Source of the DNA: Euglena gracilis
Lineage: Eukaryota
Length of the DNA stretch: 64,000 nt
Direction of reading: 5' to 3'
Assembly (NCBI GenBank): GCA_039621445.1
Contig: CP154954.1
Coordinates: forward strand, 15,704,140-15,768,139
The notes below the pieces were generated by a model that did no database searches, was not told where the DNA came from, and worked only from the letters and a program-made list of their open reading frames with translations. Below, piece by piece: positions 311 through 64,000 of this stretch. Position numbers and translations under genes: made by a program. The stretch's first letter is position 1, and every line of letters begins with the position of its first letter.

Positions 311-1345
311 TCTCAAAAAATAACCAAACCCAAAAAGCTCATTCCCCTCACCCCCCACATTTTTTTTTACACAAAAAACCATCCAGGCCCCCCGTGGCAC
401 AAAATTCGGCTATCATCATCAATTACGAACCACTAAATCCACCAGTCAGATAAACACGCGATAGATATTTCTATTTTTCACAGGACATGATCCATTTTTG
501 ACAATAAATGAACCAGGAAAAATTAAAAAGTTTTTCCTAAATGGTCCTGAAATACCGCCCAAATGTAAACTCCGGGAGATTTTTTATTATTTTTAGGAGT
601 GGATGCTTCTGTATTACTCAGGCTACCGGGGGAATTGATACAACAATTTTCCACAAATTTTCGCAAATCTTCTGCAATTTCTTCAATATTTCTGCAGTTT
701 TTTCCACTACAACCTGAAATGGAAGGCGAAATGGGTTTCAGCCATTCCTTGAGCGTTTGTTTCACAAGGGAACCCAGGTGTTTTTATTTTATTTTTGCAA
801 TTTTTACAATTTTGCCAAAATTTGCCAAACTTTACAAATTTTCGCACGTTTTGGCAATTTCTTGGCATATTTTTATTAAAGGTTTTCCCCTGATTTCTGC
901 TGGGAAATCATTTCCACTTAAAAAAAAAAATTCCGCATCCCGGACCAGATTTTAATCTGAGACCAAACCTTTTGTCAATCATATTTGTGCTTTTCAGATT
1001 TTTCAGCCAAAAAATTCCATATTTCTAAAATCAGCGAGTTTTCAGAATAAAAAAAAATATTATTCAGACTTTTTTTTGCAGAAAAAGTGCTAATAACAAT
1101 TTAAAAATACACCAAGTGTGCACAATGACAAAAGTTGTGAAGTTTTTCTAAGTCCTCCAGCATAAGTGCACACATTCCCAAAACCCCAATTTCCGCAACT
1201 TTCCCCCAGTTTCGGCAATTTTTCCACAATTTTTATTTGGCCTCCAACATCAATTCCCCTCCCCTCCATTAACTCTTGTCATGCACTGGGGCGGGGGGGG
1301 GAGGCGAATGATGGTGGGTCATATCGTGGTACCGACCGCCAACAG

Positions 1346-13654
<12,309 letters not shown>

Positions 13655-19700: not shown

Positions 19701-20030
19701 ACTCGAACTGCTGATAATGTATATTCAAAAATAGATGATTTTTTATATGAAATACGGTGAGTTGCGGCATATTTGGGTCCCTAAAGTTTTTGACAAAACA
19801 GGGAACCCCCCTCCAATAACAGAATCCCTGCTAGAGGTGTTGAAATTCTACCCAAATATATAACTGCGGGCTCCTACATGCCCCCCTGCAGTGCAAACTT
19901 TTGAGCAGGGGGACGCGGGTGGCCCTCCCTCGCCATGGCGGCCCACACCGGCGCCAGCGCGGCAGACTCCTCGTCGCCTGCGCCGTGCCTGCGGAGCGCA
20001 CTGCCCCCCACTGCGCAGTGGCCAGGGGAG
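16711..20030 (+). other. Exons encoding a Euglena class I-type tripartite plastid-targeting presequence
   Basis: Signal-peptide-like [23 protein letters not shown], then a P/A/R/S-rich transit-like region. A second hydrophobic stretch [21 protein letters not shown] is followed by RR (stop-transfer; exon starting 17260), then a [11 protein letters not shown] segment before the MnmG core. Confidence 0.75.
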
Positions 20031-23000
20031 GACCAGACTTGCAGGTAACATATGCCCCCCCCCTGATGAAGACAGCAGGCCGGAGATGAGAAAGGTGCAT
20101 CTGGTCAATCTGTAGTGAATACATTGCGCAACATCATATGTGTGTGTGTGCTGTGTGGAGTTGACGCAAACCACGACCAACTGCAGTGGCAGTGCAGTGC
20201 CATGCAGCGAAGCGGCAGCGCAATTGCAGTGCAATGGCGGTGGCAGTGCACTGGTATGGGTTTCAGAATACAGAGGAATGGCAGAGGCAGTGCAGTGCAA
20301 TGCAGGTCTCGAGGCCTTCCAGTAGTTGTGTGCGTGCGAGTGCGCGTGCGAGTGCGCGTGCGAGGAGCGAGCGAGCGCGCGTGCGCGCGCGCGCGAGAGA
20401 GAGAGAGACAGAGAGAGAGTGTGTGTGTGCGTGCATGTGCGTGTGCGTGTGTGTGTGCGTGTGCGCGCGCGATGTCATGTGCTATGTTGTTTCCTTGCAG
20501 TTTGTGATGCCATACCGTCGGGTCTGGGGAGGACACAGAGTACGACGTGGTGGTGGTCGGCGCCGGGCACGCAGGCTGCGAGGCGGCTCTGGCGGCGGCG
20601 CGCCTGGGGGCCCGCACGCTGCTGCTGACGATGACCCTGGACAAGATCGCCTGGCAGCCGTGCAACCCGCCCGCGGCCCCGCATGCACCCGGGGGATGGC
20701 TTGGGGCGGGGGGGGGGGCGCAAATTTTTTTGTGTGTTTTTGACGGTTTTCGATTTTAGCAAAAATTGCTTTTTTTGCGGGTTTTTTTTTTAGCATTTTT
20801 GCATTCGAGGGCACATGTTGCCTCCACCCCCCCCCCCGCTTCAAATGCGAATCAACCACAAACGTTCAACTTTTGAACGGGTGAATGTGGTTCGTTGAAA
20901 GAGATGTTGTCGTGTAGAGTACCCAGCACCACGATGGGCTGGGGTCCCGACTCAACCCCCCCCCCCCGGCTCATTGGCCCAGTCCATTGTGGCCCCAACA
21001 AGCCGGAGGGGGGAGGGCAACTTCGGGGCGCCATGTTGACCCCAATGACCAAAGGGGGGGGCAACCAGCCGCCAAGCCAAAATGCCTCAAAACAGGGGGT
21101 CCATTTGGGCCTGTGGCCAACTTTGGAGGTGGGGGGCATGTTGGCCCCAACAGGGGGGGGGGGAATGAGCCGGGGCGGCGGAGGTATGACGAGGAAGCCT
21201 GAGCTGGCACAATGGAGTTGCGCAGATATTTTATGGTTTTCAGCCACCAGGTCCTGGCACCTCCAAAATCCCTATAAATGGACAGCATTTTTTGGTCTTT
21301 CTGCAGGTGGGGTCCAACAAATCCCTACAAATACCGACAGAGAAAAAAATTGTGCAAATGAATGCCTAGCCAAAGCCTTCCTAGTGAACAACTTCGACCA
21401 TCTTTTTGTCCTTCCTTTTTTGTTGCAAAGTTTTGTAGTTTTCTCTGTTCCTTGCTTTTCTTCTTTGAAAACTTTTTTGTCTTCACAGATTGTCCTGAAA
21501 ATGGTGGCTATCTGAGCAGCCAAAGTGTGCCTGGTAGAAGATCAGCATCAGCAGACTTAGTACAGTCCGGACAAAAATGATGGGAAACAAAAGTAAAACA
21601 AACAAAAATATAAAATATATAAAACAAATAATATATAATATATAATGTGTAATATATAATATATAATACATAATATATCAATATATAATATAACATATAA
21701 TAAATGGCATACAATGTACAATAATATATAGCACATATAATAATAACACTGACATACATAACAATAAAATGATATTAAACAAAAATAATGGGAAACCACC
21801 CAATTTTCCCATTCATTCTTCCTATCATTTTCCCCTGTACCTTTTCTATGCCCTTTGGTGGGGGGCACGTTCAGGGGTAGTCAATTTTCACCACAAAAAG
21901 TTGGGGGTATGAAATATGGTCACGTTTGGACTTCTTTTTTTGTAATAAAGGAACCACAAAAAAGACACCTACAAAACGATTTTGACGATTTTTTAAACCT
22001 CAATTTAAGTTTCAATTTGAATATTTTTGAGTTTAAAAGCCAATTGCATAAAAAATATTTATTTTTGAAATTTATATTTAATTACATTTAAATATTCAGT
22101 TGCTTTTCTGCTGATTTATTCATAACAATTGAGAAAAATTACCACCATTTTCCGTAAAAGTTTAATCTTCCCATTGCGTTGATTGTGTTTCCAACATTAA
22201 AGATTTTGCATAATTTTTTCACGTAATTGTTGTTTCCCGTCGTCGGACCGTGTATGCATTCTGGATCAAATCTGTCCAAAATAATGTGGCCAGGACCCCA
22301 ACCCCAGTGTTCAATCCCGACAAATCCCGACAAAACATAACAAATCCTGACAAATCCCAACAAATCCTGACACAGCCAAATCGCAAGTGTCTAGAGATGT
22401 CTGTCAAGGATAACAAATTGAATATGATTTTTGTTCTGTTTTGGAACAGAGGTTAGCTGGCTGGATCTTTCATCAATTTAACTTGGGTGGATTAACCTCG
22501 GCGTTTCCAGGGGAGAGGTAACCACCTTGTCCATATCGGGGTAAGAAAATCTGTTCGTCAACATTTATTTCAGAATTAAGGCCTCTACAAAATGCATGGA
22601 AAGATGGTTGGATCAATTTCCACCCACGACGCAGTATTTGTGCTGGGAGGGGGGTGCTCGCCAGCATGCCAGGGGGGTGCTCGCCAGCCCAAAGCTCCAA
22701 AAAAAAAAGATGTTTTCACCATTTTTATTTCACCGACCTCTCCCCCAATGAATGAAAAGGAGTTTATTTAGTTTGAACAAATGAAAAAAAAAAACAATTT
22801 CCCCTTTTTTTTTCTGTTTTCACGGGTTTATGTTGTTGTTTGCCAGGCCGGGCAGCGATGGCAGCCATCGGGGGCTCCGCCAAGAGCCAGCTGGTGCACG
22901 AGGTGGACGCGCTGGGGGGTGAGATGGGCAAGGCGGCCGACGCGTCGTACCTCCACAAGCGCCTCCTGAACGCCTCCAAAGGACCGGCCAGGCCTGAACG

Positions 23001-26000
23001 CCACCGCTGAGCGGCCAAAGCAGCTCCTCCATGAGTTTGACTTTGGTTTTGGTTTGGGGTTGCATCATTTTTGTCATTTCCCCCCCATTTTTGTCATTTT
23101 TGCCATTTTTGTTGTTGTTTTTTTACATTTTCATCATTTCTGTCATTTTTGTCTTTTTTGGCATTCATGCCATTTTGGCAGAGTTTTGTGCCTGAGGTCG
23201 GCTGTGCATGCCCTGCGAGCCCAGACAGACAAGGTACGTGCTGCCCCAAGCGTGGCTGGCTGTCTGCACATGCACAGGGTCACAGGCTTGCCGACATCCT
23301 GCGTTTTGCATGTCTGATGCTTCGTGTCTACGCAAACTGATGCTGGAAAGGCAGACAGAAAAGCGTGCAGGGATTGGATGTTTTGGTGATTTTAAGAAAT
23401 AGGAACCCAAATTTACCTTAGTATGCAGCCTGAACCTTCATAAGGAGGAAACCTTGGACGAGGAGGAGAACCGTTTCCCATTCAGCAGTTTTTGTTTCAG
23501 GAGCATGGAAGAGAAAGATTATTTAATTATAACACAGCAGGTCAAGCAACACAAATCAAAATATATAATTTAAATTTTCATTTTTTAATATTATTAATAT
23601 TTTTTTGCTAAAGCAGGAAGAATATATAACGCAATTTGCATCGATTCTTGTCGATCTGAAAGGCACATTCCACTCCTTGGCCCCTGCCTTTCAGGTGGAG
23701 TACTCACAGTACATGCGGCAGGTGCTGGAGACCACCCCGAACCTCTGCCTGCGCGAGGGCACCGTCAGCGAGCTGTTGGTGGATGAGCACAACGACGAGG
23801 TCCGCGGGGTGCGGGCCATGGATTCCCCGACCCTGTAATGACCCACCCAGGGGGGGGGGTGAAGGGGGGGGGTGGGTGGGTGGGTAGGTTTGGACCGCTG
23901 GGCCCTCGGGGGGGGGGGGGGCATTATTTGTTCGCGTGTTTGGGCCCAGGGAAAAGTCTCCCTGGGGGGGTATCGAAGTGAATCCATGGGACGGACCGTG
24001 TACGGGATGGAGTTCCATGCCCCGACCCTCGTGCTGACCGCTGGTACAGCCAGCGGCGAGCTTTAGAACATCCCAGGTTTGGAATGCCCAGCCTTGTTGC
24101 ATCTTTTTTTTTGCCCACTCAATTTCCCTCCCCCCTGGTGCTCCCCCTTGCAAGTGATGGGTGGGCAGAGTTGTTCCAAGTGAACCAGCATGTGTGTTTT
24201 TCTTTGAGAGCACCATAGGGCACCACCCAAGGAATCAGAACAGGCTGGCTGGGGGTTCCCGCATTTTCAAGGGGGTGGGGTCAGTCGGTGCCGGTGGCCG
24301 ATGGCGCACCCCACACATGCTTTGCCCGCGCCGCCCGTCAGTCGCCGCTGCCGCCCGTTCATGAACGGCACCATCTGGGTGGGCCGCACCACGCGCTCCG
24401 CTGGGCGGGCCGGGGAGCAGGCCTCGACGGGCATCACGGAGCAGCTGCAGCGTCTGGGACAGGCCGGGCCGGGGGGCCAGGGTGCTCGGGGGCGGTGGCG
24501 GTGCGTGGGCGTGCCCCGTGATGTGGTGACGTGGTTGTCGCGGACCTGGGTGTCCAGCTGTGGCCGGTGCGGCAGTGGTGTCATTTCATGGCCAGGGCGA
24601 GCTGGCCACCTCCTTTCAACCAGCCTTTTTCCCCACCTTTCGCCTTGAAGCTGTCCTTGTTGCCAGAGTCGCTGTTGAATTGTCATTAATTGTGTTTTTG
24701 GTGGCAATTTGCATTTGGAGCCTTTTTCTGAAAGGACTACAAATGATACAGTTGTGGCCAGGCTGTTCTCCAGAAGGGTCACCCCATGGTGGGGTGCTTT
24801 GGGCAGGCAGGAGAAGACAACATCTTCGAACCCCTGGGGTCGGGTTGGGGAGGAGGTGTTAATTATTTGTGCATCCCAGGCACCGAAAGCGCTGAGGGGC
24901 GGAAAAACGGCCATTCTCAAGCAGTGCGGTCCATTTGGGACGGGAAGGTTTCTTTTTCCCGTCAAGGACCGCCCTTAGGCCTAAGGGCCGACCAAACACT
25001 GAAACAGCTGGTTGAGAACTCAAATGTTGTTAAAAATGAAAACGCCAAAGAACACATTTTGACGTTTTGGGTGGACGGGCGATGGTCCAAGGTTGTTCCA
25101 CACCATTTTTTTTTCCACCAAGTTGGCCCGTTTTGCCATGGTATGGCCATACCATTTTCTCGGCAATGTTTCCTGCGGATTTCTCGTTGAATGCGCTGGG
25201 ACGGGGAATGGGAATTTCGTCTCCTTCGGCCCGACTCGGTTCCCCAAAACGACCCTGCAACGGAAAGGTCCCCAAAAGGCACAAGGTGTCGCCCTCCCCC
25301 AAGCGTCTGACTGTAGCAATGCGGTCCAGCCCCGCGGACGCATCCGTCGGGGCCCCAGTGCCGGGCCTGGCCGAGGCTTCACCACCGACCGGCTGAAGAC
25401 GGGGACGCCCCCCCGCGTCGATGGCCGGACCGTGAATTTCGCGGTGATGGAGCCAAACATTCACTTACCCGCCCCCCCCCCCCCTTGTCGTACAACCACC
25501 CCTCATTTACGCCCCCCCCCCGGTCACAGGCTGCAGGTCATGAGGGTGTTATGACCACCCCCCCCCCCCCCGGTCACAGGTTGCAGGTCATGGGCCCCCC
25601 GGTCACAGGTTGCAGGAACCCACTCGTACGACGGGGGGGGGGGGGGCGGGTAACATTGATTTGACCCCCGGTTCCCGAAAACAGTCGGTGTGGGTGGGTG
25701 GGTTTGCGCCCGGGAAGTGTGTTGCTAAGTGAATCTGTGGATGGAGCCGATGCCAGGGGACTCCCGCACGCGGTGGTTCACCCACGACACCGCTCGGCAC
25801 GTGGAGCGGGAACAGGTCAGGGATTTTTTTGGCTGGGTAGGGGGGGTTCCTCACGCAAAAAGTCGCAAAATTTGCCTCGCTTTTGTCCGCTGGTGGAGTT
25901 GCATTTTGCTCACAGCCCCAAATATTTTTTTTTCACAAAAGCCCCAATTATTTTCAGCCAAACAGCCCTGCACCGATGCTGTGCTATGGGACGCGGACGA

Positions 26001-29000
26001 CCGCCGCCACCCACCAACTGATCCGCGACAACCTCCACGAGACTCCGAACAGGGCCCGGCAGATGGCGGTGTTTTGGGGAAGGGAAGTGTACAGTGAACT
26101 GTGCCTGGCCAAGTGCTTACCCGCAATCCATCCGGGACAAATGTGGTATAATTATACATTAAATTGTTTCGATGAAGGCTTTCACATTCGGACCTCAAGC
26201 ATCCACTGAATTTTGGTACTGCTGACCTTGGAAGGTTGGGAGACAGATGCCTGTTGGGACCCGGTTTTCTTTTGTTGATTCACCCGGACCCTGGGGTGGA
26301 TCTATGGCGGTTGGGTGGATTCCAAAGGCCCTCGCAACTGCCCTTCCATCGAGGACAAGATTGTGAAGTTTGCCCAGAAGGAAAGCCACCTGGCGCCGAA
26401 TGGATATTTGAATCCTCCCGCAGCCGCTTAGTGAGAAACGCCAGTGGAAGAGCTCTGCAACACCGGAATCAATGAAATTGCTTCCAAGCCTGGGTGAAAT
26501 GAAACTCGAACGCAGAGCTGCAGCACAGACACCACCGAAGCCAAATATGAAAAAGTATTAATTGCAATTTTATGTTAATGAATTGGAAAACACTGATTAA
26601 TTATAATTATTGATCAATAACACGAAAAAAAATTATTTTATTATGAATAATAGTAAACACTGCCACAAATATTAAATATCATTATCAATATTAAGATGTT
26701 GCATTATAAACATTATTGTTATTATTATTATTATTATTATTGAATAATATAATTGTAAATATCATTAATTGCCCCTTTTCTCACCGGCCGACCCCATTCG
26801 ACTCCGGGGCCACCCAGTGTTCCTGGAGCCCGAGGGGCGCCGCACGCCGGAGCTCTACGTCCAGGCCCAGGGTTTGAAACCAGCAGAGGGGGCACCGGTG
26901 CTCCTCCTCGTCCTCCCTGAACAATGGCAAACCCTGCCCAGGGCTGCTCCACCGGGCTGCCGGAGCGCCTGCAGCTGGGGCTGTTGCGGGCTGGGGGGTC
27001 CCGGAACGAGGGGGCAGGGCAGGTCTCGCACACTACACGCAAACAGAAACGGACACTGCCAAGAGACCCAGACATGCCCGTCTGTTCACACTCACACCCA
27101 CTCATTCATCACAGGGCAGGGGGGGGGGAAATGCACCGCGCATTTTTGCGCTTTTTTGCGCTTTTTTTTGCGCATTTTTGTCAATTTTTCAAAAAATGCG
27201 CATTTTTGCGCATTTTTTGCGCATTTTTTTCCATTTTCCCACTTTTTTTTTTTACACTTTTGTCCATATTGTCCACATTGTCCATATGTCAAAAATAAAT
27301 TTGACATTGGTGTTCTTGAACACCGTTCTTCTGAACAATTCTATGTTATCATCCATCCCTCTTTCCGCCAATAATCAAATTCTCCATTCTTCCCTCAGAT
27401 TTTTTCACAAAATGGCTTCAAGTTCAACGGCTGATCATCCAAGCTTTTGTTCAATGGAAATTTTATTCTTGGACAAAAGCTTGCTGCCAAGAAGCTGAGC
27501 AGATGGAGCAAGATGAAATGCGGAATCCTACTCCTCTGGTCACAAGTAAGCGGCACCATGGCTGACATTGTTGGTTATGGTGAACGGAGAGTGACGCTGC
27601 TGAGCGACGTTGCTCGTGCATTTTTTTTTTTGGCCAAAATGCCTTCATTTCAGCTCTTTTTGGTGATTTTGGTTTAATTTTGGGCTTATTGTTGGAAATT
27701 TTTCTAAGTCCTTTTTCCCTTAGGAATGTCACAACTCAGCGCATTTTTGCACATTTTTTCCCAAGGCCGTCCAGCGCATTCCCCCCCCCCTGCACATGGG
27801 TAGACACGCACTCGCATTTATTTTAAAGCATACACACTCCCGTGCACACAAGCAGATAAACGATAAACGCACAAACACACACAGACAAAGAAACACACAT
27901 GTGTGCATAAACACATGCACGATCCTCAAACGTTGGTGGTGTCCTCCACGTTCTACAAAAGAGCTCCACATATAATCACCCTTCGAAGCTCAATCCTCGC
28001 TGCTCTTCCTCCCCCTCCTGTTTGGACCTCGCCCGGGCTCCCCCATCGAGGGACGCTGCCGGGGATGGAGCAGGTGAAGATGGTGCGGCCCGGCTATGCC
28101 ATCGAATATGATTACATTCCCGCCACGCAGTGCACGCGAACCCTGCAGGCCAAGACGGTGCGCGGCCTGTACCTCGCTGGCCAGGTGTGCCGGGGCGGAA
28201 TGAAAGTGGCACCTTAAATTGACCAATCCCCTGCGAAACACCAGCTCCATCACTTACCAACTGATTTGACACACACACATATATATATATATATTCATAT
28301 GTATGATCACATATGTATAAATTAACAACGTGCATTACAAATATGTATTAACATGTATTAATGTGTTCATGCACGTATGAACATATTAATGCATTTTTTA
28401 ATATATTTAATATGTATTAACATATCAATGTGTACAAATATGTTTTAATGTACATTCATAGGTTGATAAATAATGATATTTATATGATTTTTATTTCAAA
28501 TCCAGCCCCCCCCCCCCTCACAGGTGTGTGGCACGACGGGGTACGAGGAGGCGGCAGGGCAGGGCCTCGTGGCGGGGGCCAACGCCGCCCTCGCGGCGCT
28601 GGGCCGCCCAGGGGATTTAGTGAATTGGTGTTTTGCATGGCAGAGGGGCAGACCTGGGCAGGAGGGGGGGCAGACCCGAAGGGGGGTCTGGGACCCCCCG
28701 CGCGATTTGTACAATGATTTTCTTGGAGAATGCTCTTGATTTTGTTTAGAAAAAAACGTATGCGAAGCCGCGATATTGGGCCTTTTTTCCCAGTTCCCCC
28801 AAAACTTTTCCAGCGCTTTAAGCTGGAGAGTCTGTTGTGCCCCCCCCCCCCTGGCCACTCAATACCCTGTGGCCGCCCCGCGCTGGAGCTGCCGCGGGAG
28901 TCGTCGTACATCGGCACCATGGTGGACGGCCGCCGCCCTGCATGGATGGCACCAGGACCCACTGAGTCCAGAGGGGAGGGGGCGGTTGTTGTCTGAGGTT

Positions 29001-32000
29001 GTGACGGGGACCGGCTCACCCCCCCCCCCTGCAGCCCTCGCACCCGCCAATACAAGGCCCTCCTACCTCCTATTACAAAAACTCGCGGCCGTGGTTTCAG
29101 ACAGTGGGGGGGGGCATCTTGCACAGGTGGGCGTGGTAGATAGAAAGCACAGGGAATCCCAGAGTGCTGGCAACACATGCTGTTTGCACTCCTGCCCTGT
29201 TTGTACACAGTGCCCTGTTGGAAGGAGGGAGTTTGATTAGGGGGTCACCCAACTTTGTTGACTGTCTCTGGTCTCAACTGGGGTTTTAACCAGGGGGCGG
29301 GGAATATGCAATTTGCATGATTTGCAGTTTTTTTTGGATAATCAGGTTTTTCCGAAATTTGCATTTTTTTTGCATTTTTTTGCATTTTTTTTTTGCATAA
29401 AATATTTTCCCCTGGACAATTTTTTTGTAGTTAGTCGCCGTGTCATGTTTGGTCCCTCTGCAGTTGCCTCAGGTCTTTGATATTTTCACCCTAGTAAAAG
29501 GCCGCCGCTCTATTGATGTTCAATGGTGACCTGGAGGGACGATTTGCTTTGCCTGAACGTGCAGGTGCCATTTGTGTTGATTTTCAAAGCTTCAGTGCTT
29601 GCCGTTGCCTTCCAGCAGGTCTTCTTTGTGAATCATTGACAGGTACCCCGGCATTGTCACATGTTTACGGATTTTAGGCAGCAAAACTCTGTTATATTCC
29701 AGCCTTTTCTCAGGGGTTTAATGCAAGTTGCATTTTTTTTCATTTTTTTGCATTTATTTTACTTGCATAATTTGAAGGGCCAAGTTGCCTATCCCCCTAT
29801 CCCCCCCTGTTTTAACTGAGTTTTCAATTTCTTAAAATAGAAATGTTTTTCACACCAAATTGCTTTTCAGAGAAGTGGTTAATTAATTTATCAATGTTTT
29901 TGAGCACTGCTCAGATGTTTACAAGGGTCGGGGCCAAAAGATTGGCCCATGAATTTTGCAGTGGGCAAAGTTGTTTGGGGTATTGAAATGACCCCCCCCC
30001 AATTAGAAGCCCCCAGGGGTTATTGTTGTTATTGTTTGGTTAGTCTGCGGAAAACCCGAGGAGGGCTTCTAATGGGGCACCCTTATGCGGGGCCCAAAAA
30101 ACTTTTGGCGCTTCGCGTCGGGTGTAAAAAAGTCAGCCTTTTTGGATTTGTGTTGACGTAGAAATAATTCTTTTTTATGCGCACATCCTGCCAGAGTTCC
30201 TCGAAGATGTCACTCTTGTTGATGCCCCCAAAGATCCGATCCACCTGCATTTGTGTGCTTGTGGCTGGCCAGCGCCAAGCACCTATAGTAAAAATGGCGG
30301 AAAATGGTCGAAAATGGCCGAAAATGGCCGAAAATGAAATTTTGGGCTCTGTAGGTGGGGGTCCCGAAACTGGCCGAAAATGGCGAAAATGGCCGAAAAT
30401 GAGAAAAAAATTGCAAATTTTTTTCGAGTTTTTTTTGCCGAACAGTTGCTTTTTTCCTGGGGGGGGGGGGCAATTTTCAGTGCGATTTATTCTTGTCTCT
30501 GTGCAGCCTGTCTTCTTTTGTTATTATGCCTGGCCCTGCAACACATGCTGCTCAAACAACCACCTCCGAAAGGGTTATTTGGGCCACAGCTGATATTTTG
30601 ATGCCATTTCCAATGTTACTCCCATGTTGGCCATTTTGGATCAATTTTTGCTATATTTTGCACTGTTTTGGCAAATATTGGGCTAATCTGGGTCAATATG
30701 GGCACATTTTATGGCATTTTGCACCATTTTGGTGATTTTGGGTTATTTTTCACAATTTTGTGGACATTGTTGGCGCTTTTGGGCAAGTTTAGGTTATTTG
30801 AAGCAATTTTGGGTCAATTTGATTGCTTTTTGGGGCCTTTTGCGGTCAAATTTAGGTTTTTTGTGGTCATTTTTTTGGGTTTCTGTGCTAGGTTGGGAGC
30901 CAGTGGATGCAGTGGTTACAGATACTGGACAAGATGCAATGGATGCAGATGCTGAACAAGATGCAGACTGAACAAGATGTCGACACTGGACAAGATGCAG
31001 ATGCTGTATGAGATGCAGATGCTGGACAAGATGCAGATGCTGAACAAGATGCAGACACTGGACAAGATGCAGATGCTGTGCAACATGCAGATGCTGGACA
31101 AGATGCAGATATTGGACAAGATGCAGACGTTGTTCAAGATGCAGACACTGGACAAGATGTCGACACTGGAGAAGGTGCAGATGCTGTACAAGATGCAGAT
31201 GCTGGACAAGATGCAGATGCTGGACAAGATGCAGATGCTGGAGAAGATGCAGTGGATGCAGATACTGGACAAGATTAAGATCTTGACAAGATGCAGGTAT
31301 TGGATAAGATGCACACACTAGACAAGATGCAGCGATTGCTGATGCAACGGATGTAGATATTGGACAAGATGTACATGCTGGGCGAGATGCGATGTTGAAC
31401 AAGAGGTGAGCACATTTGATGTCAACATTTCAACATTATGGACCAATCACATGTTTGCTTGCTTTTGTTTGCTTTTCTTTGCTTGCACGTGCTGCTCAAC
31501 GAACCACCTCCAAATGGGTTATTTGGGCAAAAGCCGATGGTTTTGATGACATTTCAGAAAATTGTGGTGACAAGGTGCAATTAGGCAAAGTATGAGAAGC
31601 GTTTTTTTCTCTGTTAAAGGTGTGAGATTCTTGCATGATTCCTGCATTAGGTTTATTGCACACAAGTGGATGGGATATAACAGTGCCACCATCAAACAAT
31701 GTTGTTTGGGGTATCAAGTTGGAATAGGTGAGGGGAAGTTGTTTGCGAAAAGCATTCACGCCAAGAGGCTTGAAGAGAAAAGCACCAGTTTTGGTGTTGC
31801 CATCCACCATTGTGGTTAATATGTCGTGTGCCAACCACTCTCATGAAGCGTCCCAAGAACCCCCAGAAAAAAAAGACCAAAGTGGACAAGAGCCTCTCTG
31901 GTAGGAAAAAAATAGCTTATTCCCAAAACCTTGCATTTGCATATTGCAAACAAAAAACTCTTTAATCCCTGAGCACCCATTCCAAACGGACCTCCTTGGA

Positions 32001-35000
32001 TGCGTTAGCTTGCCACGACTGCTTTCGTGTTGACTGAATGATCAAAATGTATTGTTGGTATGAAAGAATTTTAAGGCAGTTTTACCCCCCCCCACCTATA
32101 GGGAAAAAATGGCCGAAAATGGCCGAAAATGGCCGAAAATGGCGAAAATCTGGGGGTCAACTATAGGTGCTTGGCCAGCGCCTTGAATACGTACAGCTGC
32201 CTGGGGGAGGGGGGCTGTTATTTGAATTTTTGGTGGCGGGAAACCCGAGGGGGGGGGGCTTCTATCTGGGGGGTATTTAAGGGGGGGGCTTCTACCCTCC
32301 CCCCCCCTTGTCCAACGAACATTTACCTGTAACCTACGACCAGGGGGGGTGGTTGTACACCCCTCCAACCTGCAACCTACAACCAGGGGGTGGTCGTTAC
32401 ACAGGGGGCAAAAAGCTCATGCACCATGCACAACGGAAAATGAGCGAAAAACAGCAAAAAAAGGTAGCCAAAACACAGCGACTCCTCCGGAGGGTGTGTT
32501 ATAAAAGACAGCGCCAGAAGGCTGCTGTACGAATGCTACACAAAAAAAATTTAAAATGTCTCCAAAGAATACGGACATAACACCCTAACATTACAACCCC
32601 TAAATAGAAACCAAACAAACAAAATTAAAATGTTATCCAAAATACGGACTTCAAAGGAATCATTGTGACGCTAAATTTAATTCTTAGCGTTGTGTAGAGG
32701 ATGCCAGGTTTTTTCGTTATTTTGTTTCAGTTGTTTTTTTTTTAATTATTTTTTAGTTTTTTTTTACAAAGGAAAGATTTTTGTGACCTAAATTTAATTC
32801 TTAGCTGTAGAGGCTGCCAGGTCTACATTCAGCTGCACACCTACCTCCTGATATGGCCCCTTTTGGATTGTTTTGGTCTCCCACCAGTAAGATGGTCATT
32901 AAAACAGCCACTGTTTGTCTCAGACTGGGGGGGGGGCACCTATGGCGTCAAGTATTGACCATGGGTTGGGGTATAGGGCCATTTTAGGCTGTTTTTGGCC
33001 CTGTTGGCTAACTCATCATTTTAACCAGTTTGGGCATTTTGGCAATTTCCGAAAACTTTTGGCCATTTTTGGCGTTGTTGGTCATTTCTAAGGGCACTTG
33101 TGGCAATTTTTAGCCAATTTATGGCAACCTTTCGGCGTTTGTCGCAACCCTTAAGAATGCTGAGCCACGTTTTGCATTATCATCAGCCATTCTGGGTATT
33201 TTTAACCTCTTTAGGGGCGGACCATCGGATTATTGCTTACCAATTACCAATGTTTGCCGTTTGGAGAATTTTTGTTTTGATTGATTTTTTTGGCGCTAAC
33301 CACCACGTCCTGATTTTCACGAAAACATATCTTTTTGCACGCTTTCCTTTGCGGGGAGAAGGGGCAAAGCGGACGGTTGCTTTTCGACATTCTCCTGGCA
33401 AAGATATTTGTTCCTGACAATTTTAACCCCCCCCCCCTCCAAAATGACCCCAAAACCCAGGACCCCAAAAGAAGGCCTGGTATTCATTTTGGGGGGGATT
33501 TAGTTTAGGGCACCTCAAAGTCAGGTTGGTGGGTCAAAAAGCACCAACACACCGGGCGTGGCCAGGCCCATGGCCCAGGGCTGTGCGGGAAGCCCCGAAA
33601 TCATATGAGTGCCCCGACCCCCCACCACCAGGCCTTCCCGTGATTCCAGAGGCGCCGATTTTTCAGTCAAAATGGAACCAAAGCCGTTTTCTTTGTGCGG
33701 TTGCTGTGGTGGTGGGGGGTTGACCCACCCCCAGGGTATTAAGAGCGTTGGTTTTGAACAGGGGGAGGGGAGGCCCCTCCTCCCCCCCTAGGGGAGGGGG
33801 GTCCAGTCCACCCCCCCAGGGTCGAGAGGGGTCCCGGGGACGCCCATGGAACCAATAATTTTTCCTTCTCTGGCGCTTCGTGACACAGCCTTGTGGTTTC
33901 CCCATCCGTTCCCATCTGTTTTTGTCGATTCGGTCGGGGAAAATATCGCCAAAAACACCATTTCCGCGCGGATTTTTCTTGACCCAAAAAAGGGGAGGGG
34001 GCGTCGACCCCCCCCTTTCCACCCCCTCCCTGGGGGGAGGGGGTTCCAGACCACTCCTCCCCCTTTCCCCCTCTCATGTAATACCCTACCCTCCCCCAGG
34101 TGAGGGGCCAACCCCCTGGGCCTTCCCGTACGGTCTTGCCATATGGCCTGCAGGGCGGCGCCGGGCCGACCTCATCACGAAGCACCAGGCGGAGCCGTAC
34201 CGCGTGTTCACGTCTCGGTCGGAGCACCGGCTGCTGCTGCGGTCCGACAACGCGGACCAGCGGCTCACCCCCACCGGGTGTGCCGGAGTACCCAAAAAAC
34301 CCTTTTTGGCTATTTTTTGTTTGCAACCAGGGAGGCATGACCCCCTTAAGGGGCAGGCACCTAGGGTGTTCTGAGAGCCAGGCAAATTCAGGAACTACTG
34401 GAATTTTCGAGTAAACATGTGGGTAGACCCCCCCCCCCCCGGCGCCAATGAAGTGAGTCACACTTGCTAACCTGGCTTTGTCGGAATGGCCTCCCCCGCT
34501 GCACTGGTCAACTTGACTGAAGCCAATTTTCGAGGGAGAGGCATTATCAAGATATTGGGTAGTATTGATTGTGTTTTTTTGGAGATTATACCATTTTTGT
34601 CCTCAGCAGTCGATCTGGGGTCTCACACTCAACCATACATCCTAAGCAGGCTTCCCATTCCCCCGGACATTCACACTTGATCCGCCCTGTTCAGTTGCAT
34701 CATTCCAAATGACGGGGTTGCCCGTTGGATCGCTGCCCTCCCGGCCCAGGTACAAGTACGGCCTCGTTGCTGAACGGCAGTGGCAGGAGTTCCAGGCGAA
34801 GTGCGCCAGACCCAGCCCCCCGCCGGTGTCCCCCTCGTGGCTGAAGGAGACCGGGTCCAAACCCATTTGTGCAGTGCGTGGGCGAACGCAAAATGCACCG
34901 GCAACGCAGTTTCTTGTATGGCCCCTGACAGGAATGAAAACTCGGCCTTCCGATGTTTGGAGGAGGCTCACATTCAGGGGACATACTCGGGTGCTGTGCG

Positions 35001-38000
35001 GACCCACTGGAATTGCATGAACTGCCTGGACTGCATGCCTGTGAGCGTTCCATTGCTTGGCCGGCTGAGGCGAGGACGGAGGGCTGCCCACAATGGAGAA
35101 GGAGAAAGCGCGCCTGGGGACGGTGCGGGTGGACCCCAATCGTGCTGTATTGTGTTTCGGTCCATCGTGGTGGTTGCTTTATTTCATTTCATTTCATTTA
35201 TTTTTTTATTTCATTCTTTTTTATGCATGGATTTCGCTGCTGCTGCCATTGCTGTTGGCTTCTCGACGCTTTGAAGACTGCAGCACAGCCTCAGCACACC
35301 ACTGGGGCAGGCATTGGTCGCCGAGAGCGGGCAGGAGATGAAGTCGGCGATGTCCCTTGAGCACACCGTGGCCGACCAGTTGAAGCTGTTTGGAATCTCC
35401 ATAACTCCCCCTCAAGTATAAGGCCCACCCAATTATGTATGCCCATTAGACCACAGACGGGGCTTCATGTTTGGGCCCATATAAATTAACAAATATAACA
35501 AATACAGACAAATATAAAAAAAATTTCAAACCTTCAAATAACAACCAAATTTATTCCAAAACGATGGCTGTGCCTCCCAGATTTCCCCAAAGTGCCTTTT
35601 TTGCCCAAGATGAACCATTTCTGAGAAACGGAGAAACTACTCCCAAAATTTTCCTTCGTGCAAAGATGATCTTTTTTTAAAAACAAAAAATGTGTGTGTG
35701 TTTCTTTTGAGAGGGCACTCATTGTCCTGCCTTTTTTAAGGTGCACAATGTCCTCCCCCTGTGTAGGCATGCAGGTGGAGAAGAGATTTTAAACTCTCGC
35801 TCACTCCCCCCCCCCCGCCCCCCAAGGGGTGCCTACCTGGGATCCGACCCCGACCCCATGTAGGGGGGGGGGGGGTTGGGCAATTCGCCAAAAGTGCTTG
35901 ACACTCAGCAAGGCATTTTGGGTTTCACACATCCTGAACCGGTTTGGCACTCATGGATTGAAAACCTACCTCATTTTTCCTTCAGTCAAACTTTCTACCC
36001 AGATTGGGGATGCTGATGGAAGCCCCGTACGCCTTGCAACATGGTGAACATTCCCTGAGTGTTGGGCAATTCTGAGCGTTGCAGCCCCGCCCCAGCCACA
36101 GTGTGGGGTCGAGGGGATCCTCCGCCGGCCACACGTGCAATACAGCCTGTTGGAAGCCAGGGCACGCAGCCGTGCCAGCGCTTTGAAAAATATTGGGCAG
36201 CGCTCCCATGCTGTCTTTTGATATTTAGCAAACACATGCATTTCTGTAAATGTTCTTGGGTTTGTTGAGAAAATTTGCCTCTTTGGAATTTATTTCCCAA
36301 AATTATATGACCCCACAATACATAGGAGGAGGGCGCAGGGGTGGAAGGGGGGGGGCTGTTCCCCACCCCCTGGACCATATCCCCCCTTCTTGCAGGGTCC
36401 GGCCCCGCCCGGGGTTGGTACTTGGGGTCTGTTGGTTTGACAAAAATTTTACCCCAAAAAGTCCCCAAACGTGACATTTTTAGCAATTTTTTTGGGTGCA
36501 AAAGTTTTACATCACCCAGACATCATTTCTTCTGCCCCCCACATGTGCACACACACACACACACACATGCACACATGCACCACAAACAAACACACACATT
36601 TGCGTGCACGCACGCAAGCACACACCTGTGCAGACTCACACACACTCCCTCACACTCACACACAGACACACTACACACAACCACGCATGCACAGCATCAA
36701 GCCACCCACCACACCACACGTGTGCACGCGCACCAACCCGCGGGTCTCAACCCTGTCGTCGGCCCACGGCTACGGGGCACCTCCCAAGGCCGGCCTGCAG
36801 GCAGAGGAGAAGGACTCCGTGGAGGTGGACATCAAGTACGAGGGCTTCATCCGCCGGGCGCAGCTGCAGGCGGAGCGGGTGGCAGCGTCAATGGGGATGA
36901 AGCCACGCCCACTCCTGAAGACAAGGGGGGTGAACGCCTGTCGCATTTTTTTTCCGCGTGTGCATTTCTTGCACATTTTTTTTCAAAACTGTGCAAACAT
37001 GCATTTTTGTGCATTTTTGCATTTTTTGCAGTTTTGTCCTTTTTTTTTTGCTGTTTTGGCACATTTTTTTTTGTGATTTTTACATTTTTTTTGCATTTTC
37101 TGACCATTTTCGCAAATTTTTTTCCAATCTTTTGAATGGTTTGATTTTTTTTGAAACTGACATTTTCTTCAAAATTCCATACAATTATAGAAATACGACA
37201 CCATTTTTGCATATTTTTCGGGCATTTTTTTGCTTTTTTCGTAATTTTGGCGCATTTTCTCTAAAATTTCGAGCATTTCTGTGCATTTTTTTTTCCAAAA
37301 AAAGCATGTACATTTTTTGCGCATTATTGAGCATTTTTGCGCAATTTCCCCAACACGTGCCACCTTTTTCCCAAAAAAGAATCGTTCCGGTGCGAGATTT
37401 AACAATTTTGCCTCAAGTCCCTCCCAACACCCTGCGCTAGGCCGTTCGTCTGCCCCCCCTCCCCCCCCCCCAGCGGGGGAGGCGTGCCAGCAATTGCCCG
37501 CCGACCTGGACTACGCAGCCATCCACACCGTCTCCTTCATCGGCCGCGAGAAGCTGCGCGAGGTCCGCCCAGAGACCCTGGCCCAGGCCAGCCGCATCCC
37601 CGGCGTGACGAGCGCTGACGTGGCGGCCCTCCGCCCAGCGGCCCTGCCCGAGACCCATCGGCAACGGTGGCGCCACGCCCCGCGGCTGTTTAGGAATTGG
37701 GAATTAGGAATTGGGAATTTTGGGAATTGGGAATTGGGAATTAGAAATTGGGAATTGGGAATTAGGAATTAGGAATCGGATCCCCCATCTGGGTTGGGGG
37801 GTTCCACCACACCCCCACCTTCCAGCTGCAGGGTATACCCTCCCAACCTTCCCATGCACCCTCCCACAAGGCCCAGGCTTGGCAGGGCACCCACCGCAGT
37901 TATTTGGTGTTAATGGTAAATGGTAATGGTCAATCACGGGTTGGGGGGATGAGGTCCAGTGCCCTGTGCTGGTTTCCACCAGTTTCCACTGCCGGCAGAT

Positions 38001-38226
38001 TCTGCAAAAACATTTGGAAAAGAACTGTGTCGTGATAAACTGAACCAGAAAGCTCACCTTCAGACCGTGGTGACATGGGTTGTGTTGTGCAAATTCCGAC
38101 CCAATCAAACCCCAAAACGGAAAGGAAACTGCCACTGCGTGTGCCCATGTGGGCAGCCGCTGCCAGCGGCTGCACCTCGACCTGCGGCGCAAGCGCTCCG
38201 AGGCCGCGGCCGTGGTACCCGTGTGA
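16711..38226 (+). CDS. mnmG: tRNA uridine-5-carboxymethylaminomethyl(34) synthesis enzyme MnmG/GidA, nucleus-encoded, with plastid-targeting presequence; about 26 exons
   Basis: Exons (~ = uncertain by several nt or more): 16711-16903, 17260-~17420, ~19909-20030, 20532-20668, 22863-22985, 23200-23233, 23695-23813, 23994-24047, 24357-24456, 25375-25450, 25745-25815, 25976-26046, 26299-26387, 26812-26864, 26942-26987, 28051-28184, 28524-28605, 28875-28927, 34168-34277, 34750-34809, 35092-~35138, ~35294-35358, 36111-36154, 36761-~36885, ~37474-37632, 38168-38226 (TGA). Motifs: [16 protein letters not shown] (FAD binding), [117 protein letters not shown]. Confidence 0.95.
20031..20531 (+). other. 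Nonconventional intron in mnmG with a perfect 8-bp flanking direct repeat
   Basis: GGGAGGAC(20026-20033)-CAGAC...GTCTG-GGGAGGAC(20527-20534). CAG at +4..+6 and CTG at -8..-6. Removal joins [14 protein letters not shown] in frame. Confidence 0.8.
22986..23199 (+). other. Nonconventional intron (GG...TC) in mnmG
   Basis: CAGGC at +4 pairs with GCCTG ending at -6. Removal restores [15 protein letters not shown]. Confidence 0.85.
23814..23993 (+). other. Nonconventional intron (GG...CG) in mnmG
   Basis: Perfect 10-bp inverted termini CCATGGATTC / GAATCCATGG. Removal restores [12 protein letters not shown]. Confidence 0.85.
25451..25744 (+). other. Nonconventional intron in mnmG with a perfect 8-bp flanking direct repeat
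   Basis: GATGGAGC(25446-25453)-CAAACATTCACTTA...TAAGTGAATCTGTG-GATGGAGC(25740-25747). Removal restores FAVME|PMPGD. Confidence 0.85.
26865..26941 (+). other. 77-nt intermediate intron (GC-AG borders plus nonconventional stem) in mnmG
   Basis: Begins GCC-CAGGGTTTG and ends CAAACCCTG-CCCAG (perfect 9-bp stem). Removal restores [10 protein letters not shown]. Confidence 0.85.
27117..27792. mobile_element. MITE family B (GCATTTTT-rich) in an mnmG intron; homologues at 52085-52889 and 62783-63574
   Basis: Termini CAG(G)nAATGC / GCATT(C)nTG. The three copies share about 250 bp of 3' internal sequence (CTGGTCACAAGTAAG...CCGTCCAGCGCATT). Confidence 0.75.
28606..28874 (+). other. Nonconventional intron in mnmG with a 7/8 flanking direct repeat
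   Basis: GGGCCGCC(28601-28608)-CAGGGGATTTAGTG...CACTCAATACCCTG-TGGCCGCC(28870-28877). Inverted termini match 12/14. Confidence 0.85.
29291..29809. mobile_element. MITE-like insertion inside the 5.2-kb mnmG intron
   Basis: CAGGGGG...CCCCCTG termini, with TTTTAAC duplicated on both flanks. Confidence 0.6.
30900..31400 (+). repeat. 18-bp minisatellite (GATGCAGATGCTGGACAA)n with coding-like variation
   Basis: More than 20 degenerate 18-nt units; reads (QDADAG)n in one frame. Confidence 0.9.
37690..37775. repeat. 7-bp tandem repeat (GGGAATT)n
   Basis: Directly visible, in the last mnmG intron. Confidence 0.9.
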
Positions 38227-39380: not shown

Positions 39381-59830
<20,450 letters not shown>

Positions 59831-62800: not shown

Positions 62801-64000
62801 GCTGCGGATTGTTCCGCATTTTTGCGCATTTTTTTGTGCATTTTTGTCAATTTTTCAAAAATGAGCATTTTTTGCACATTTTTGCGCATTTTTTTGCGCA
62901 TTTTTTGCACACACCCCCCATTTTTGCACATTTTCCATTCTTTGGGCATTTTTTGCCCAATTTTGCACATTTTCCAATTTTGCTCATTTTTTTTGCGCAT
63001 TTTTGTCAATTTTTCAAAAATGCGCATTTTTTTGCGCATTTTTTGCACATTTTCCCCCCATTTTTTGCACATTTTCCATTTTTTGGACATTTTTTGCGCA
63101 TTTTTTGCACAATTTTCCATTTATGCGCATTTTCCACCCAAATCACATGCTCACCGAACCCATTTTCGCACTTTTTTTCCACCCAAGGGACCCGCCTCAA
63201 GAGAAAACCCTTGGATGATGAGGTGTGTGTACTCATCCAATGACGATGAGGACACTAGGGGTTTCAGAGACCCCACATTGACACGTAACCAAGGCAGGAA
63301 TCCCACTCCCCTGGTCACAAGTAAGGGGCACCATTGCTGACATTGTTGGTTATGGTGAACGGAGAGTGACGCCTTGGTCATGCATTTTTTGGCCAAAATG
63401 CCTTAATTTCAGCTTTTTTAGGTGATTTTGGTTTAATTTTGGGTTTATTGTTGGAAATTTTTCTAAGTCCTTTTTCCCTTAGGAATGACACAAACTCAGC
63501 GCATTTTTTTGCGCATTTTTTTGCGCATTTTTGCGCATTTTTCCCGAGGGCCGTCCAGCGCATTTCCCCCCCTGTATCAGCGAATTTTATTTTTTGCCCA
63601 CCCCCCCAAATAACAGAGGGTGGTTGGCGCCCCCAAATTGTCCCCTGCAACGTTTTTTATTTGTCTATTTCTCCCTTGCTCCGTTATTTAGAAAACCCCA
63701 TAAATTACGTTTTCTTCAGATAATCTGGTACCCAAATATTATAAAATATTCTCTTTATTGTTTGTATTGAATTTTATGTTTCTATTTGTCAGATGGCAAA
63801 GCAGTCTGTCCTTTCTGTGTTACACCTGCTGATTTTCCGGAAAGATTTTAATGTGTCATTGGAGGTGAAAAAATCTTTGGACATCTCTGCCGTATCTGTT
63901 GCAGGACGGCAACAACCAAGGGAACCGCAAAGTTATTAGCAGATTTTGTTTGTTTCGAAGGGACAACGATTGTGCAAAATAAGATGAGAATGGGTTGATG
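59862..64000 (+). mobile_element. ~4-kb composite dispersed repeat, copy 2 (runs off the window end)
   Basis: Same start motif and identical duplicated ORFs (e.g. 51433-51750 = 62130-62447; 49715-49957 nearly identical to 60497-60739). Confidence 0.8.
60008..60465. mobile_element. hAT-like MITE (family A) nested in the 4-kb repeat; internally deleted counterpart at 49456-49683
   Basis: CAGGGG...CCCCTG termini. Flanks GTTGAGTT / GTTGAGGT (7/8) in both copies. Confidence 0.75.

Follow-up and report, generated by a model that had tools for sequence, protein, structure and literature searches.

Several nonconventional introns of a mnmG gene from Euglena gracilis carry eight-base repeats directly outside the arms of their terminal stem. 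We consider it probable that at least the presumably young introns M1, M8, and M15, and most of the 14 introns with the canonical 8-nt gap, descend from short non-autonomous DNA transposons. The source elements would have had CA(G)...(C)TG inverted ends and would have duplicated 8 bp of target at insertion. Once transcribed, these ends would pair into a stem from which euglenid nonconventional splicing would measure, with cuts placed 3 nt before it and 5 nt after it. Cuts at 3 + 5 nt would remove the element plus 8 nt; as these 8 nt would equal one copy of the duplication, the original coding sequence would be restored, whatever the target. An insertion into a coding exon could in this way be removed from RNA without trace. 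The analysis covers one gene in one 64-kb window, i.e., the 64,000-nucleotide stretch of contig CP154954.1 to which all positions refer.

Reconstruction of mnmG and its introns

The gene encodes a GidA-type tRNA modification enzyme with Pfam GIDA and SAM_GIDA_C matches. It was located by tblastn using E. coli MnmG and P0002, a 581-aa euglenid MnmG encoded on an intronless 1790-nt contig, as queries. We rebuilt mnmG with euglenid orthologue proteins and enumerated its junctions. The resulting model (19935..38214, + strand) has 23 inferred introns, M1–M23, and extends to ~38214, well past 28877, where the first-pass annotation had ended. The RNA junctions are predicted from protein colinearity with the orthologues: when element plus 8 nt is taken out, the mnmG protein is colinear with euglenid MnmG, including P0002. 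In a relative (P0001), the exon between M13 and M14 has the same ends.

Twenty of the 23 introns are nonconventional and three (M4, M14, and M17) are conventional. A GT/GC-AG option is absent in 19/23 introns at every position that the coding sequence allows; M12 has a GC-AG option and also a 9-bp terminal stem. Among the 20 nonconventional introns, the unpaired gap beside the terminal stem measures 8 nt in 14, 9 nt in three, 10 nt in two, and 7 nt in one. Gaps of 8 and 9 nt agree with the euglenid class, whose stem, typically CAG/CTG, begins 3 nt inside the 5' junction and stops 5 (or 6) nt short of the 3' junction. The 8-nt-gap geometry fits the nonconventional splicing code N3-CDG...CH'G-N5-6|R, in which the 5' spacer is strictly 3 nt (PMC12501133). 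Stem ends in the 14 canonical-gap introns are CAG in nine and CAA, CAC, CAT, or TGG otherwise, and the first downstream exon base is a purine in 14/14. The nonconventional mnmG introns have the borders and stem of the euglenid class and, to judge from colinearity with P0002, would be removed at the predicted junctions.

A UFD2/UBE4-type ubiquitin ligase gene (1343..13633, + strand; P0121 and P0123) provided a control. Its 14 inferred introns are all conventional, 13 with GT-AG and one with GC-AG borders. Exact repeats in 16/17 conventional introns are 0–4 nt long and lie within the AG|GT consensus; in the exception, the GT-AG intron M14, the exact repeat reaches 8 nt and inverted ends are absent.

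Eight-base repeats beside the stem

The first-pass annotation had reported that the 8 nt before the 5' stem arm resemble the 8 nt after the 3' arm, and recounting from the sequence reproduced all seven of its values. In M1 (20026..20534, + strand), the 8-mers at 20026-33 and 20527-34 are identical (8/8) and enclose an element at 20034-20526 with CAGAC...GTCTG ends. By the N3/N5 rule this intron is 20031-20531, which is 501 nt and a multiple of 3. Only the repeat and the common reading frame set its register, because exon 1 is without orthologue support; the inverted ends are just 5 bp, and the weak terminal stem is missing from the MFE fold. M8 (25446..25747, + strand), 294 nt long, has identical 8-mers at 25446-53 and 25740-47 (8/8) around an element at 25454-25739. 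Its inverted ends agree at 12/14 positions, its terminal stem is seen in the MFE fold, and its register is fixed by P0002 protein colinearity. In M15 (28601..28877, + strand), the 8-mers at 28601-08 and 28870-77 agree at 7/8 positions around an element at 28609-28869, with inverted ends of 10/12 and a terminal stem in the MFE fold.

The 11 further 8-nt-gap introns (M3 to M23, + strand) span 22981..38170 and take their registers from orthologue alignment. Located by the outer bases of their stem arms, identity is 6/8 in M11 (26391/26806; 8-mers 26383-90/26807-14) and M12 (26868/26936; 8-mers 26860-67/26937-44), and 5/8 in M3 (22989/23194) and M5 (23817/23988), the introns previously noted near 22986 and 23814, as well as in M23 (37636/38162). 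It is 4/8 in M7 (24460/25369), M18 (34813/35086), M20 (35362/36105), and M21 (36158/36755), and 2/8 in M10 (26050/26293) and M22 (36904/37486). Inverted ends are only 5 bp in M1, M3, M10, and M21. Six off-geometry introns (20669..35286, + strand) have gaps of 9 nt (M2, 2/9; M6, 2/9; M13, 3/9), 7 nt (M9, 4/7), or 10 nt (M16, 5/10; M19, 4/10), and the repeat excess is absent in them (20/54 identical positions). The remaining introns in the range first annotated are at 4/8 or below as described there (M7 4/8, M10 2/8; M2, M6, and M13 2–3 of 9).

These repeats exceed chance. Over the 14 introns, the stem-abutting 8-mers are identical at 70/112 positions, and the in-register flanks of the same introns at 26/112 and 30/112. 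Permuting partners, which preserves composition at each position, gave a mean of 41.6 (sd 5.0) and reached 70 in 0/20,000 shuffles. Without M1, 62/104 positions are identical (matched in 0/20,000); without M1, M8, and M15, the count is 47/88 compared with 30.5 (sd 3.9) and was equalled in 1/20,000. Positional consensus common to the introns accounts for part of the identity: permuted partners are 37% identical, not 25%. All eight gap positions are elevated, with agreement in 6–13 of the 14 introns (13/14 at position -3), and agreement falls to 5/14 and 0/14 at the first two stem positions. The comparison of offsets that the earlier annotation had proposed, carried out here on the 14 mnmG introns for k = 4 to 12, gave an identity of 0.62 at k = 8 and 0.23–0.36 at every other k.

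Elements with the same architecture outside exons

Introns and elements outside exons in the window have in common the combination of CA...TG ends and an 8-bp duplication. A scan that ignored gene annotation and sought CA...TG ends that are at least 8/10 complementary, counting abutting repeats with at most one mismatch, found seven matches at k = 8 compared with 0.7 in shuffles; the figures were five versus 3.3 at k = 7 and one versus 0.8 at k = 9. The seven comprise M8, four non-exonic loci (one doubled by segmental duplication), and one dubious match. The duplication signal is seen at k = 8 only, both in introns and in the four non-exonic elements (8, 7, 8, and 7 of 8).

All four elements are given without strand. 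The largest, a 1898-bp element at 30276-32173 (30268..32181 with flanks) nested in intron M16, ends in perfect inverted repeats of 14 bp (CAAGCACCTATAGT...) and is flanked by an exact 8-bp duplication; the flanking sequence is unique. A 477-bp MITE at 47499-47975 (47491..47983 with flanks) has perfect inverted ends of 16 bp (CAGGGGATTTCTTAAG) and flanks that agree at 8/8, but it is located inside a G-rich minisatellite whose unit includes the same 8-mer, so that this duplication is weak evidence. Its body is similar to 60065-60466 (80%) and 49476-49684 (76%). To the same family belongs a 228-bp MITE at 49456-49683 (49448..49691 with flanks; 7/8), the counterpart of which in the segmental duplicate is 458 bp long (60008-60465; flanks at 60000-60473); the family accounts for two independent insertions in 64 kb, with a body identity of 76–88%. 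The fourth element, 316 bp at 55633-55948 (55625..55956 with flanks), is bounded by CAGGGTT... ends; its flanks agree at 7/8 and are unique sequence, and its body recurs in diverged form at 4897-5078.

Clustering of the introns with MITEs, which the first-pass annotation had anticipated, was found for the ends and not for the bodies. Twelve between-element end pairs agree at 9/12 positions or more, compared with 0.82 in shuffles, among them M15 with the 47499 MITE (the 5' end of M15 is 9/12 identical to the MITE end after CA), M9 with the 55633 element, and M5 with M8. The bodies of mnmG introns showed no similarity to those of the MITE family, and most intron bodies are unrelated to one another. 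The match between the ends of M9 and the 55633 element is partly a T run.

Mobility of these elements was presumably transposase-driven. Judged solely by duplication length and end sequence, their superfamily would be hAT-like, hAT elements being characterized by 8-bp duplications and C/TAG... ends (PMC3260210, PMC3517528). The earlier suggestion of a hAT link keeps these two features in its favor and has two results against it: no transposase family was found at E<=0.01 among 150 of the 153 window ORFs of at least 125 aa, and TA at positions 4-5, as in the Buster target consensus nnnTAnnn, was present in 0/7 duplications compared (M1, M8, M15, 30276, 47499, 49456, and 55633).

Discussion

The reading of these introns as transposons with 8-bp target-site duplications, first put forward from the sequence alone, is favored by a repeat that fills the 8-nt gap between the stem arms at k = 8 only, same-ended duplicated elements outside exons, clustering of ends, and protein colinearity. 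The graded loss of repeat identity among the introns may follow their age, as the first-pass annotation proposed. The 8-mer similarity might instead reflect splicing signals needed at both junctions, i.e., a purine at intron +1 and exon +1 and a C before CAG, together with chance. The 37% identity of permuted partners and the agreement of position -3 in 13/14 introns are in line with such signals, as is the experimental requirement for an exon-start purine (PMC12501133). However, none of the 20,000 composition-preserving permutations reached the observed identity, the 8/8 and 7/8 repeats are unrelated in sequence, and repeats also occur at non-exonic elements, where splicing signals do not apply; this already disfavoured explanation strikes us as very improbable. 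We give equally little credence to the idea that the non-exonic copies are former introns moved via RNA, with circular introns being reverse-spliced or reverse-transcribed and reinserted. Excised nonconventional introns are indeed reported as circular RNAs (PMC11282704), but a reinserted intron would bring its own 3+5 spacer bases and not duplicate a new target, and the non-exonic copies have target-specific 8-bp repeats abutting CA...TG.

Double-strand-break repair, in which filler DNA is captured at a staggered break without a mobile element or transposase, was proposed in 2016 for the eight-nt repeat of a new gapC intron (PMC4770533), and both the failure to find a transposase among 150 of the 153 window ORFs of at least 125 aa and the mutual unrelatedness of most intron bodies accord with it. 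Random filler capture is nevertheless not expected to yield CA...TG inverted ends every time, and the fixed repeat length of 8 recurs with the same ends at independent non-exonic sites, including a multicopy family; we therefore regard repair scars as unlikely. More weight is due to a mixed origin, although we doubt it: only a minority of the introns (M1, M8, M15, and perhaps M11 and M12) would be transposon insertions, and those of low identity or aberrant geometry would have arisen otherwise, for example as conventional introns that gained stems. The low identity of the six introns with 7-, 9-, and 10-nt gaps, the values of 2/8 for M10 and M22, and the alternative GC-AG borders of M12 agree with this, and transitions of this kind were proposed in 2014 (PMC3935182). 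Against it, with M1, M8, and M15 set aside, identity in the other 11 canonical introns is still above that of permuted partners.

The transposon origin may extend to a broader proposition, which we advance tentatively and with less than even confidence: that the 3+5 spacing is a fossil of the 8-bp staggered cut of a transposase, that one element superfamily seeded most nonconventional introns, and that the splicing machinery acts as an RNA-level neutraliser. The machinery may have adapted to the elements, or the elements may have been filtered by pre-existing machinery. If the proposition is true, the seeding superfamily would be CA...TG-ended, 8-bp-duplicating DNA transposons, exonic insertions of exactly this element class would be silenced genome-wide, and the tolerance and accumulation of such insertions in euglenid genomes would be explained. 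In E. agilis, 71.8% of all introns are reported to be nonconventional.

Comparison with known systems

Several components of this model are already in print: a MITE origin, TSD-like repeats, the N3/N5 code, and, for a newly gained intron, an eight-nt repeat. Transposon origin with TIR and TSD labels has been published (PMC3935182, PMC11282704), so that the 8-bp arithmetic alone may add to what is known; an explicit link between 3+5 and an 8-bp TSD was not found in the literature searched. In E. agilis, the gapC intron that a single strain gained recently is accompanied by direct repeats of eight nt (PMC4770533). As stated in the 2014 paper, no transposable elements had by then been identified in euglenid genomes (PMC3935182), and the 2025 study excluded "slidable" introns, i.e., those carrying repeats (Nomura et al., 2025).

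The mnmG introns share with other euglenid nonconventional introns (Milanowski et al., 2014, 2016; Nomura et al., 2025) borders that are not GT-AG, direct repeats at the junctions, a stem pairing +4..+6 (CAG) with -8..-6 (CTG), and a proposed MITE-like origin. They differ in that the texts searched neither relate the length of the repeat to the 3+5 spacing nor present a MITE family whose ends match. With hAT MITEs such as maize Ds1 and Drosophila Mar, the present elements have in common an 8-bp target duplication, the absence of coding capacity, and short inverted ends, which in hAT MITEs start with C/TAGGG or CAG(G/A)GG (PMC3260210, PMC3517528); in contrast, some ends here are CAA or CAC, and the Buster consensus (PMC3517528) fits 0/7. 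The introns of Amoebophrya and Fritillaria likewise have non-canonical borders with inverted and direct repeats and are read as MITE-derived (PMC7789003, PMC11282704), but the duplications in Amoebophrya are 3-5 nt (PMC11282704), and the descriptions consulted for both mention no constant distance from stem to cut that would match the length of the duplication (PMC7789003, PMC11282704). Introner elements, found in Micromonas and further algae, are also non-autonomous DNA transposons that have inverted ends, duplicate their target, and turn into introns when they insert, and splicing takes out the element plus one duplication's worth of sequence; introners are, however, spliceosomal, with element-supplied splice sites and a 3-nt duplication (PMC11282704), whereas in mnmG introns an RNA stem would set the cuts, at distances of 3 and 5 nt, and the duplication is 8 bp.

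Intron structure of the mnmG gene

The window reads as euglenid nuclear DNA. Searches with E. coli MnmG (tblastn) returned exon-sized matches on the forward strand from approximately 20541 to 37631, and a word search with one mnmG exon identified two sequences: P0002, a 581-aa MnmG on an intronless 1790-nt contig with 80% identity over that exon, and P0001, a genomic fragment of a relative. With P0002 as query, the gene, which encodes a GidA-type tRNA modification enzyme, could be traced as far as 38214 (19935..38214, forward strand); the range 20026-28877 treated in the first-pass annotation therefore comprises only its first two thirds.

We inferred intron junctions from protein colinearity, enumerating for each pair of neighboring exons every combination of donor and acceptor under which the product stays colinear with P0002 or, for intron 2 (M2), with the orthologue P0003. 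The length of each intron, i.e., its register, is thus set independently of any repeat. The exception is M1, for which the register rests on the repeat and the shared reading frame because the exon before it is an N-terminal extension that lacks conservation. The resulting model contains 23 introns (M1-M23, numbered in order), i.e., 20 nonconventional and three conventional GT-AG introns (M4, M14, and M17); M12, counted as nonconventional, can also be read as GC-AG. M1 additionally contains a candidate conventional pair (20045-20500), with GTAACA 11 nt inside the start of the 5′ arm and, 26 nt inside the end of the 3′ arm, a pyrimidine tract plus CAG. As read from the sequence, splicing of this inner pair alone would leave an in-frame stop behind, and the arrangement may be a nested one. 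When P0001 is compared with 28053-28187, the frame of the relative breaks away at precisely the two boundaries of the exon between M13 and M14, a pattern suggesting that the relative has introns at the same two positions; the decayed repeat of M13 (3/9) is anecdotally consistent with old age.

Direct repeats at the terminal stems

The first-pass annotation had proposed that target-site duplications (TSDs) of 8 bp explain the +4/-6 placement of the intron stems, based on identity between the eight nucleotides before the 5′ stem arm and those after the 3′ arm. A recount on the sequence reproduced all of its counts: 8/8 for M1 (20026-33/20527-34) and M8 (25446-53/25740-47), 7/8 for M15 (28601-08/28870-77), 6/8 for M11 (26383-90/26807-14) and M12 (26860-67/26937-44), 5/8 for M3 (near 22986) and M5 (near 23814), and 4/8 or fewer for the remaining introns in that range. 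We then located the outermost terminal stem of each nonconventional intron and summed the unpaired bases between arms and junctions, a sum that is independent of where a slidable junction is placed. It equals 8 (3 + 5) in 14 of the 20 introns (M1, M3, M5, M7, M8, M10, M11, M12, M15, M18, and M20-M23), 9 in M2, M6, and M13, 7 in M9, and 10 in M16 and M19.

Across the 14 introns with a sum of 8, the 8-mers flanking the stems agree at 70/112 positions, compared to 26/112 and 30/112 for the adjoining in-register 8-mers. Reassigning downstream 8-mers among the upstream ones, which keeps positional composition, gave a mean of 41.6 (sd 5.0), and 70 was reached in none of 20,000 shuffles. The excess persisted when M1 was left out (62/104; 0/20,000 shuffles) and when M1, M8, and M15 were all left out (47/88 vs. 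30.5 shuffled; 1/20,000). Identity was raised at all eight gap positions (6, 7, 8, 9, 8, 13, 9, and 10 of 14) and dropped to 5/14 and 0/14 at the first two stem positions. Among k-mers abutting the stems (k = 4 to 12), identity was 0.62 at k = 8 and 0.23-0.36 at every other length. The six introns with sums of 7, 9, or 10 showed no excess (20/54).

Permuted identity was 37% rather than the ~25% otherwise expected, and part of the similarity is therefore shared consensus; for example, the first downstream exon base is a purine in 14/14 introns with a sum of 8. The permutations, however, retain this composition, and the observed identity lies well above them. A duplication of 9 bp was rejected, as the repeat extends by one base in 8/20 side tests, close to the 5 expected at a chance of 1/4 per side.

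Conventional introns served as controls. A second gene on the forward strand (1343-13633), modeled on P0121 and P0123, encodes a UFD2/UBE4-type ligase, and its inferred introns are all conventional (14/14). Intron type contrasts sharply between these neighbors, as 20/23 introns of mnmG are nonconventional. Among the 17 conventional introns that the two genes have together, in-register identity does not go beyond AG|GT(G) and exact repeats span 0-4 nt, with the exception of M14. This GT-AG intron has an exact 8-nt direct repeat (28182-28189 and 28521-28528), but no inverted ends inside; the repeat exceeds what splice consensus alone accounts for.

Elements outside exons

A strict gene-blind scan for perfect 6-bp ends missed known cases and mostly returned tandem-repeat artifacts. 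We therefore scanned the whole window for CA...TG ends that are complementary at 8 or more of 10 positions, 40-3000 nt apart, and abutted by repeats with at most one mismatch. Repeats of 8 nt were found seven times, compared to a mean of 0.7 in 10 shuffles, whereas other lengths were closer to the shuffled means (k = 6, 10 vs. 10.1; k = 7, 5 vs. 3.3; k = 9, 1 vs. 0.8). The seven matches are M8; a 1898-bp element nested in M16 (30276-32173), whose perfect ends are 14 bp long and whose 8/8 duplication lies in unique sequence; a 477-bp MITE (47499-47975) that combines perfect ends of 16 bp with flanks matching at 8/8; a MITE related to it at 49456-49683, together with the segmental duplicate of that copy at 60008-60465 (7/8); a 316-bp element (55633-55948) with 7/8 in unique flanks; and a dubious match (27190-29324). 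M15 is absent because it was masked by the low-complexity filter. The 47499 MITE sits in a G-rich minisatellite, the unit of which contains the same 8-mer as its flanks, and elsewhere the array even has two such 8-mers side by side; its 8/8 flanks alone therefore prove little.

Several other features were observed in the window. A segmental duplication (49311-53314 and 59862-64000; 94-97% identity) contains a zinc-finger-like ORF (49703-49954 and 60485-60736), and its two copies differ by ~230 bp in the MITE. The element nested in M16 contains a minisatellite (30900-31430); G-rich or repeat arrays related to it are found at 1-330, 1495-1750, 36548-36719, 44930-45290, and 54420-54580, and tandem arrays are also present at 43120-43727 and 46813-47504. 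A weak Fer2 match beside the 55633 element looked spurious on inspection, so that this element is at most a possible intron of a minus-strand gene.

Body identity among the MITEs at 47499, 49456, and 60008 is 76-88%. The earlier expectation that intron bodies cluster with a MITE family was not borne out in the window, where clustering was seen at the ends: body-level BLAST of mnmG introns against the MITEs gave only poly-G/C and other low-complexity matches, whereas 12 of 684 between-element end pairs matched at 9 or more of the 12 positions after CA, compared to 0.82 in composition-preserving shuffles. These include M15 with the 47499 MITE (9/12), M9 with the 55633 element (10/12, in part through a T run), and M5 with M8 (9/12). 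A Pfam search that covered 150 of the 153 ORFs in the window with a length of at least 125 aa detected no transposase; the elements here are therefore non-autonomous, and protein evidence does not allow a superfamily to be assigned. A 16-nt MITE end matched at least 115 metagenome contigs once each, with no paired inverted copies, and these matches were taken as chance. Part of the M13 body is an interspersed repeat (27108-27759, 52080-52835, and 62782-63521; up to 87% identity), and parts of M7 and of the 55633 element have diverged copies in UFD2 introns (4308-4451 and 4897-5078).

Discussion

Where euglenid nonconventional introns come from, and why their stems have the odd +4/-6 placement, have been open questions since the 1990s. 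To our knowledge, the MITE hypothesis for these introns has hitherto been without identified elements. Within the window, the proposed TSD geometry is well supported by identity confined to k = 8 and by non-exonic elements of the same architecture. Most likely, the system works as follows: an element with CA(G)...(C)TG ends would enter an exon and duplicate 8 bp of target; its ends would pair in the pre-mRNA; and the nonconventional machinery would make its cuts 3 nt upstream of the stem and 5 nt downstream of it, removing the element plus 8 nt so that one full target copy remains. The machinery may be tuned to such elements, or it may act simply as a filter on the insertions that persist. Two further proposals are that graded repeat decay may form an intron age series and that the elements may belong to the hAT superfamily.

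Removal of 3 + 5 nt fits the experimental splicing code N3-CDG...CH'G-N5-6|R (PMC12501133), which demands a 5′ spacer of exactly 3 nt and has a 3′ spacer of 5 nt but tolerates 6; this tolerance agrees with the sum of 9 in three of the introns here. In that study, introns that have repeats at their junctions, 84.4% of all introns, were set aside as 'slidable', and a duplication signal would sit in that class. That introns of some kinds derive from transposons is already known, as is the MITE hypothesis for euglenids, which dates from 2014 in a text stating that transposable elements were not then identified in this group (PMC3935182). A 2016 account describes a nonconventional gapC intron, present in one E. 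agilis strain only, with eight-nucleotide direct repeats longer than those of other introns, and interprets them as double-strand-break repair (PMC4770533). In a 2024 review, CAG/CTG is annotated as TIR and the junction repeats as TSD-like (PMC11282704); the terms '8 bp', '8-bp', '8 nt', and 'hAT' did not turn up in a search of its main text. Across freely accessible main texts, we found neither a statement of the link between 3 + 5 and 8 bp nor a euglenid MITE family matching intron ends. The tie between duplication length and splicing code, with matching non-exonic elements, appears new.

If the 8-bp duplication does equal the 3 + 5 spacers, exonic insertions of such elements would be spliced precisely from the outset, which would explain rapid and ongoing intron gain. 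The link deserves genome-wide testing, and the question would be testable with existing data and tools, i.e., the annotated E. agilis junctions, which number in the hundreds of thousands, and the knock-in assay at EgGSL2. The likeness to hAT elements, which make 8-bp duplications and have C/TAGGG-type ends (PMC3260210 and PMC3517528), is real, with membership in the superfamily putative; the Buster target consensus cited in the latter is fitted by 0/7 duplications here. Algal introners offer a parallel, as transposons that make introns; the route proposed here would, if true, be a second and non-spliceosomal one from transposon to intron.
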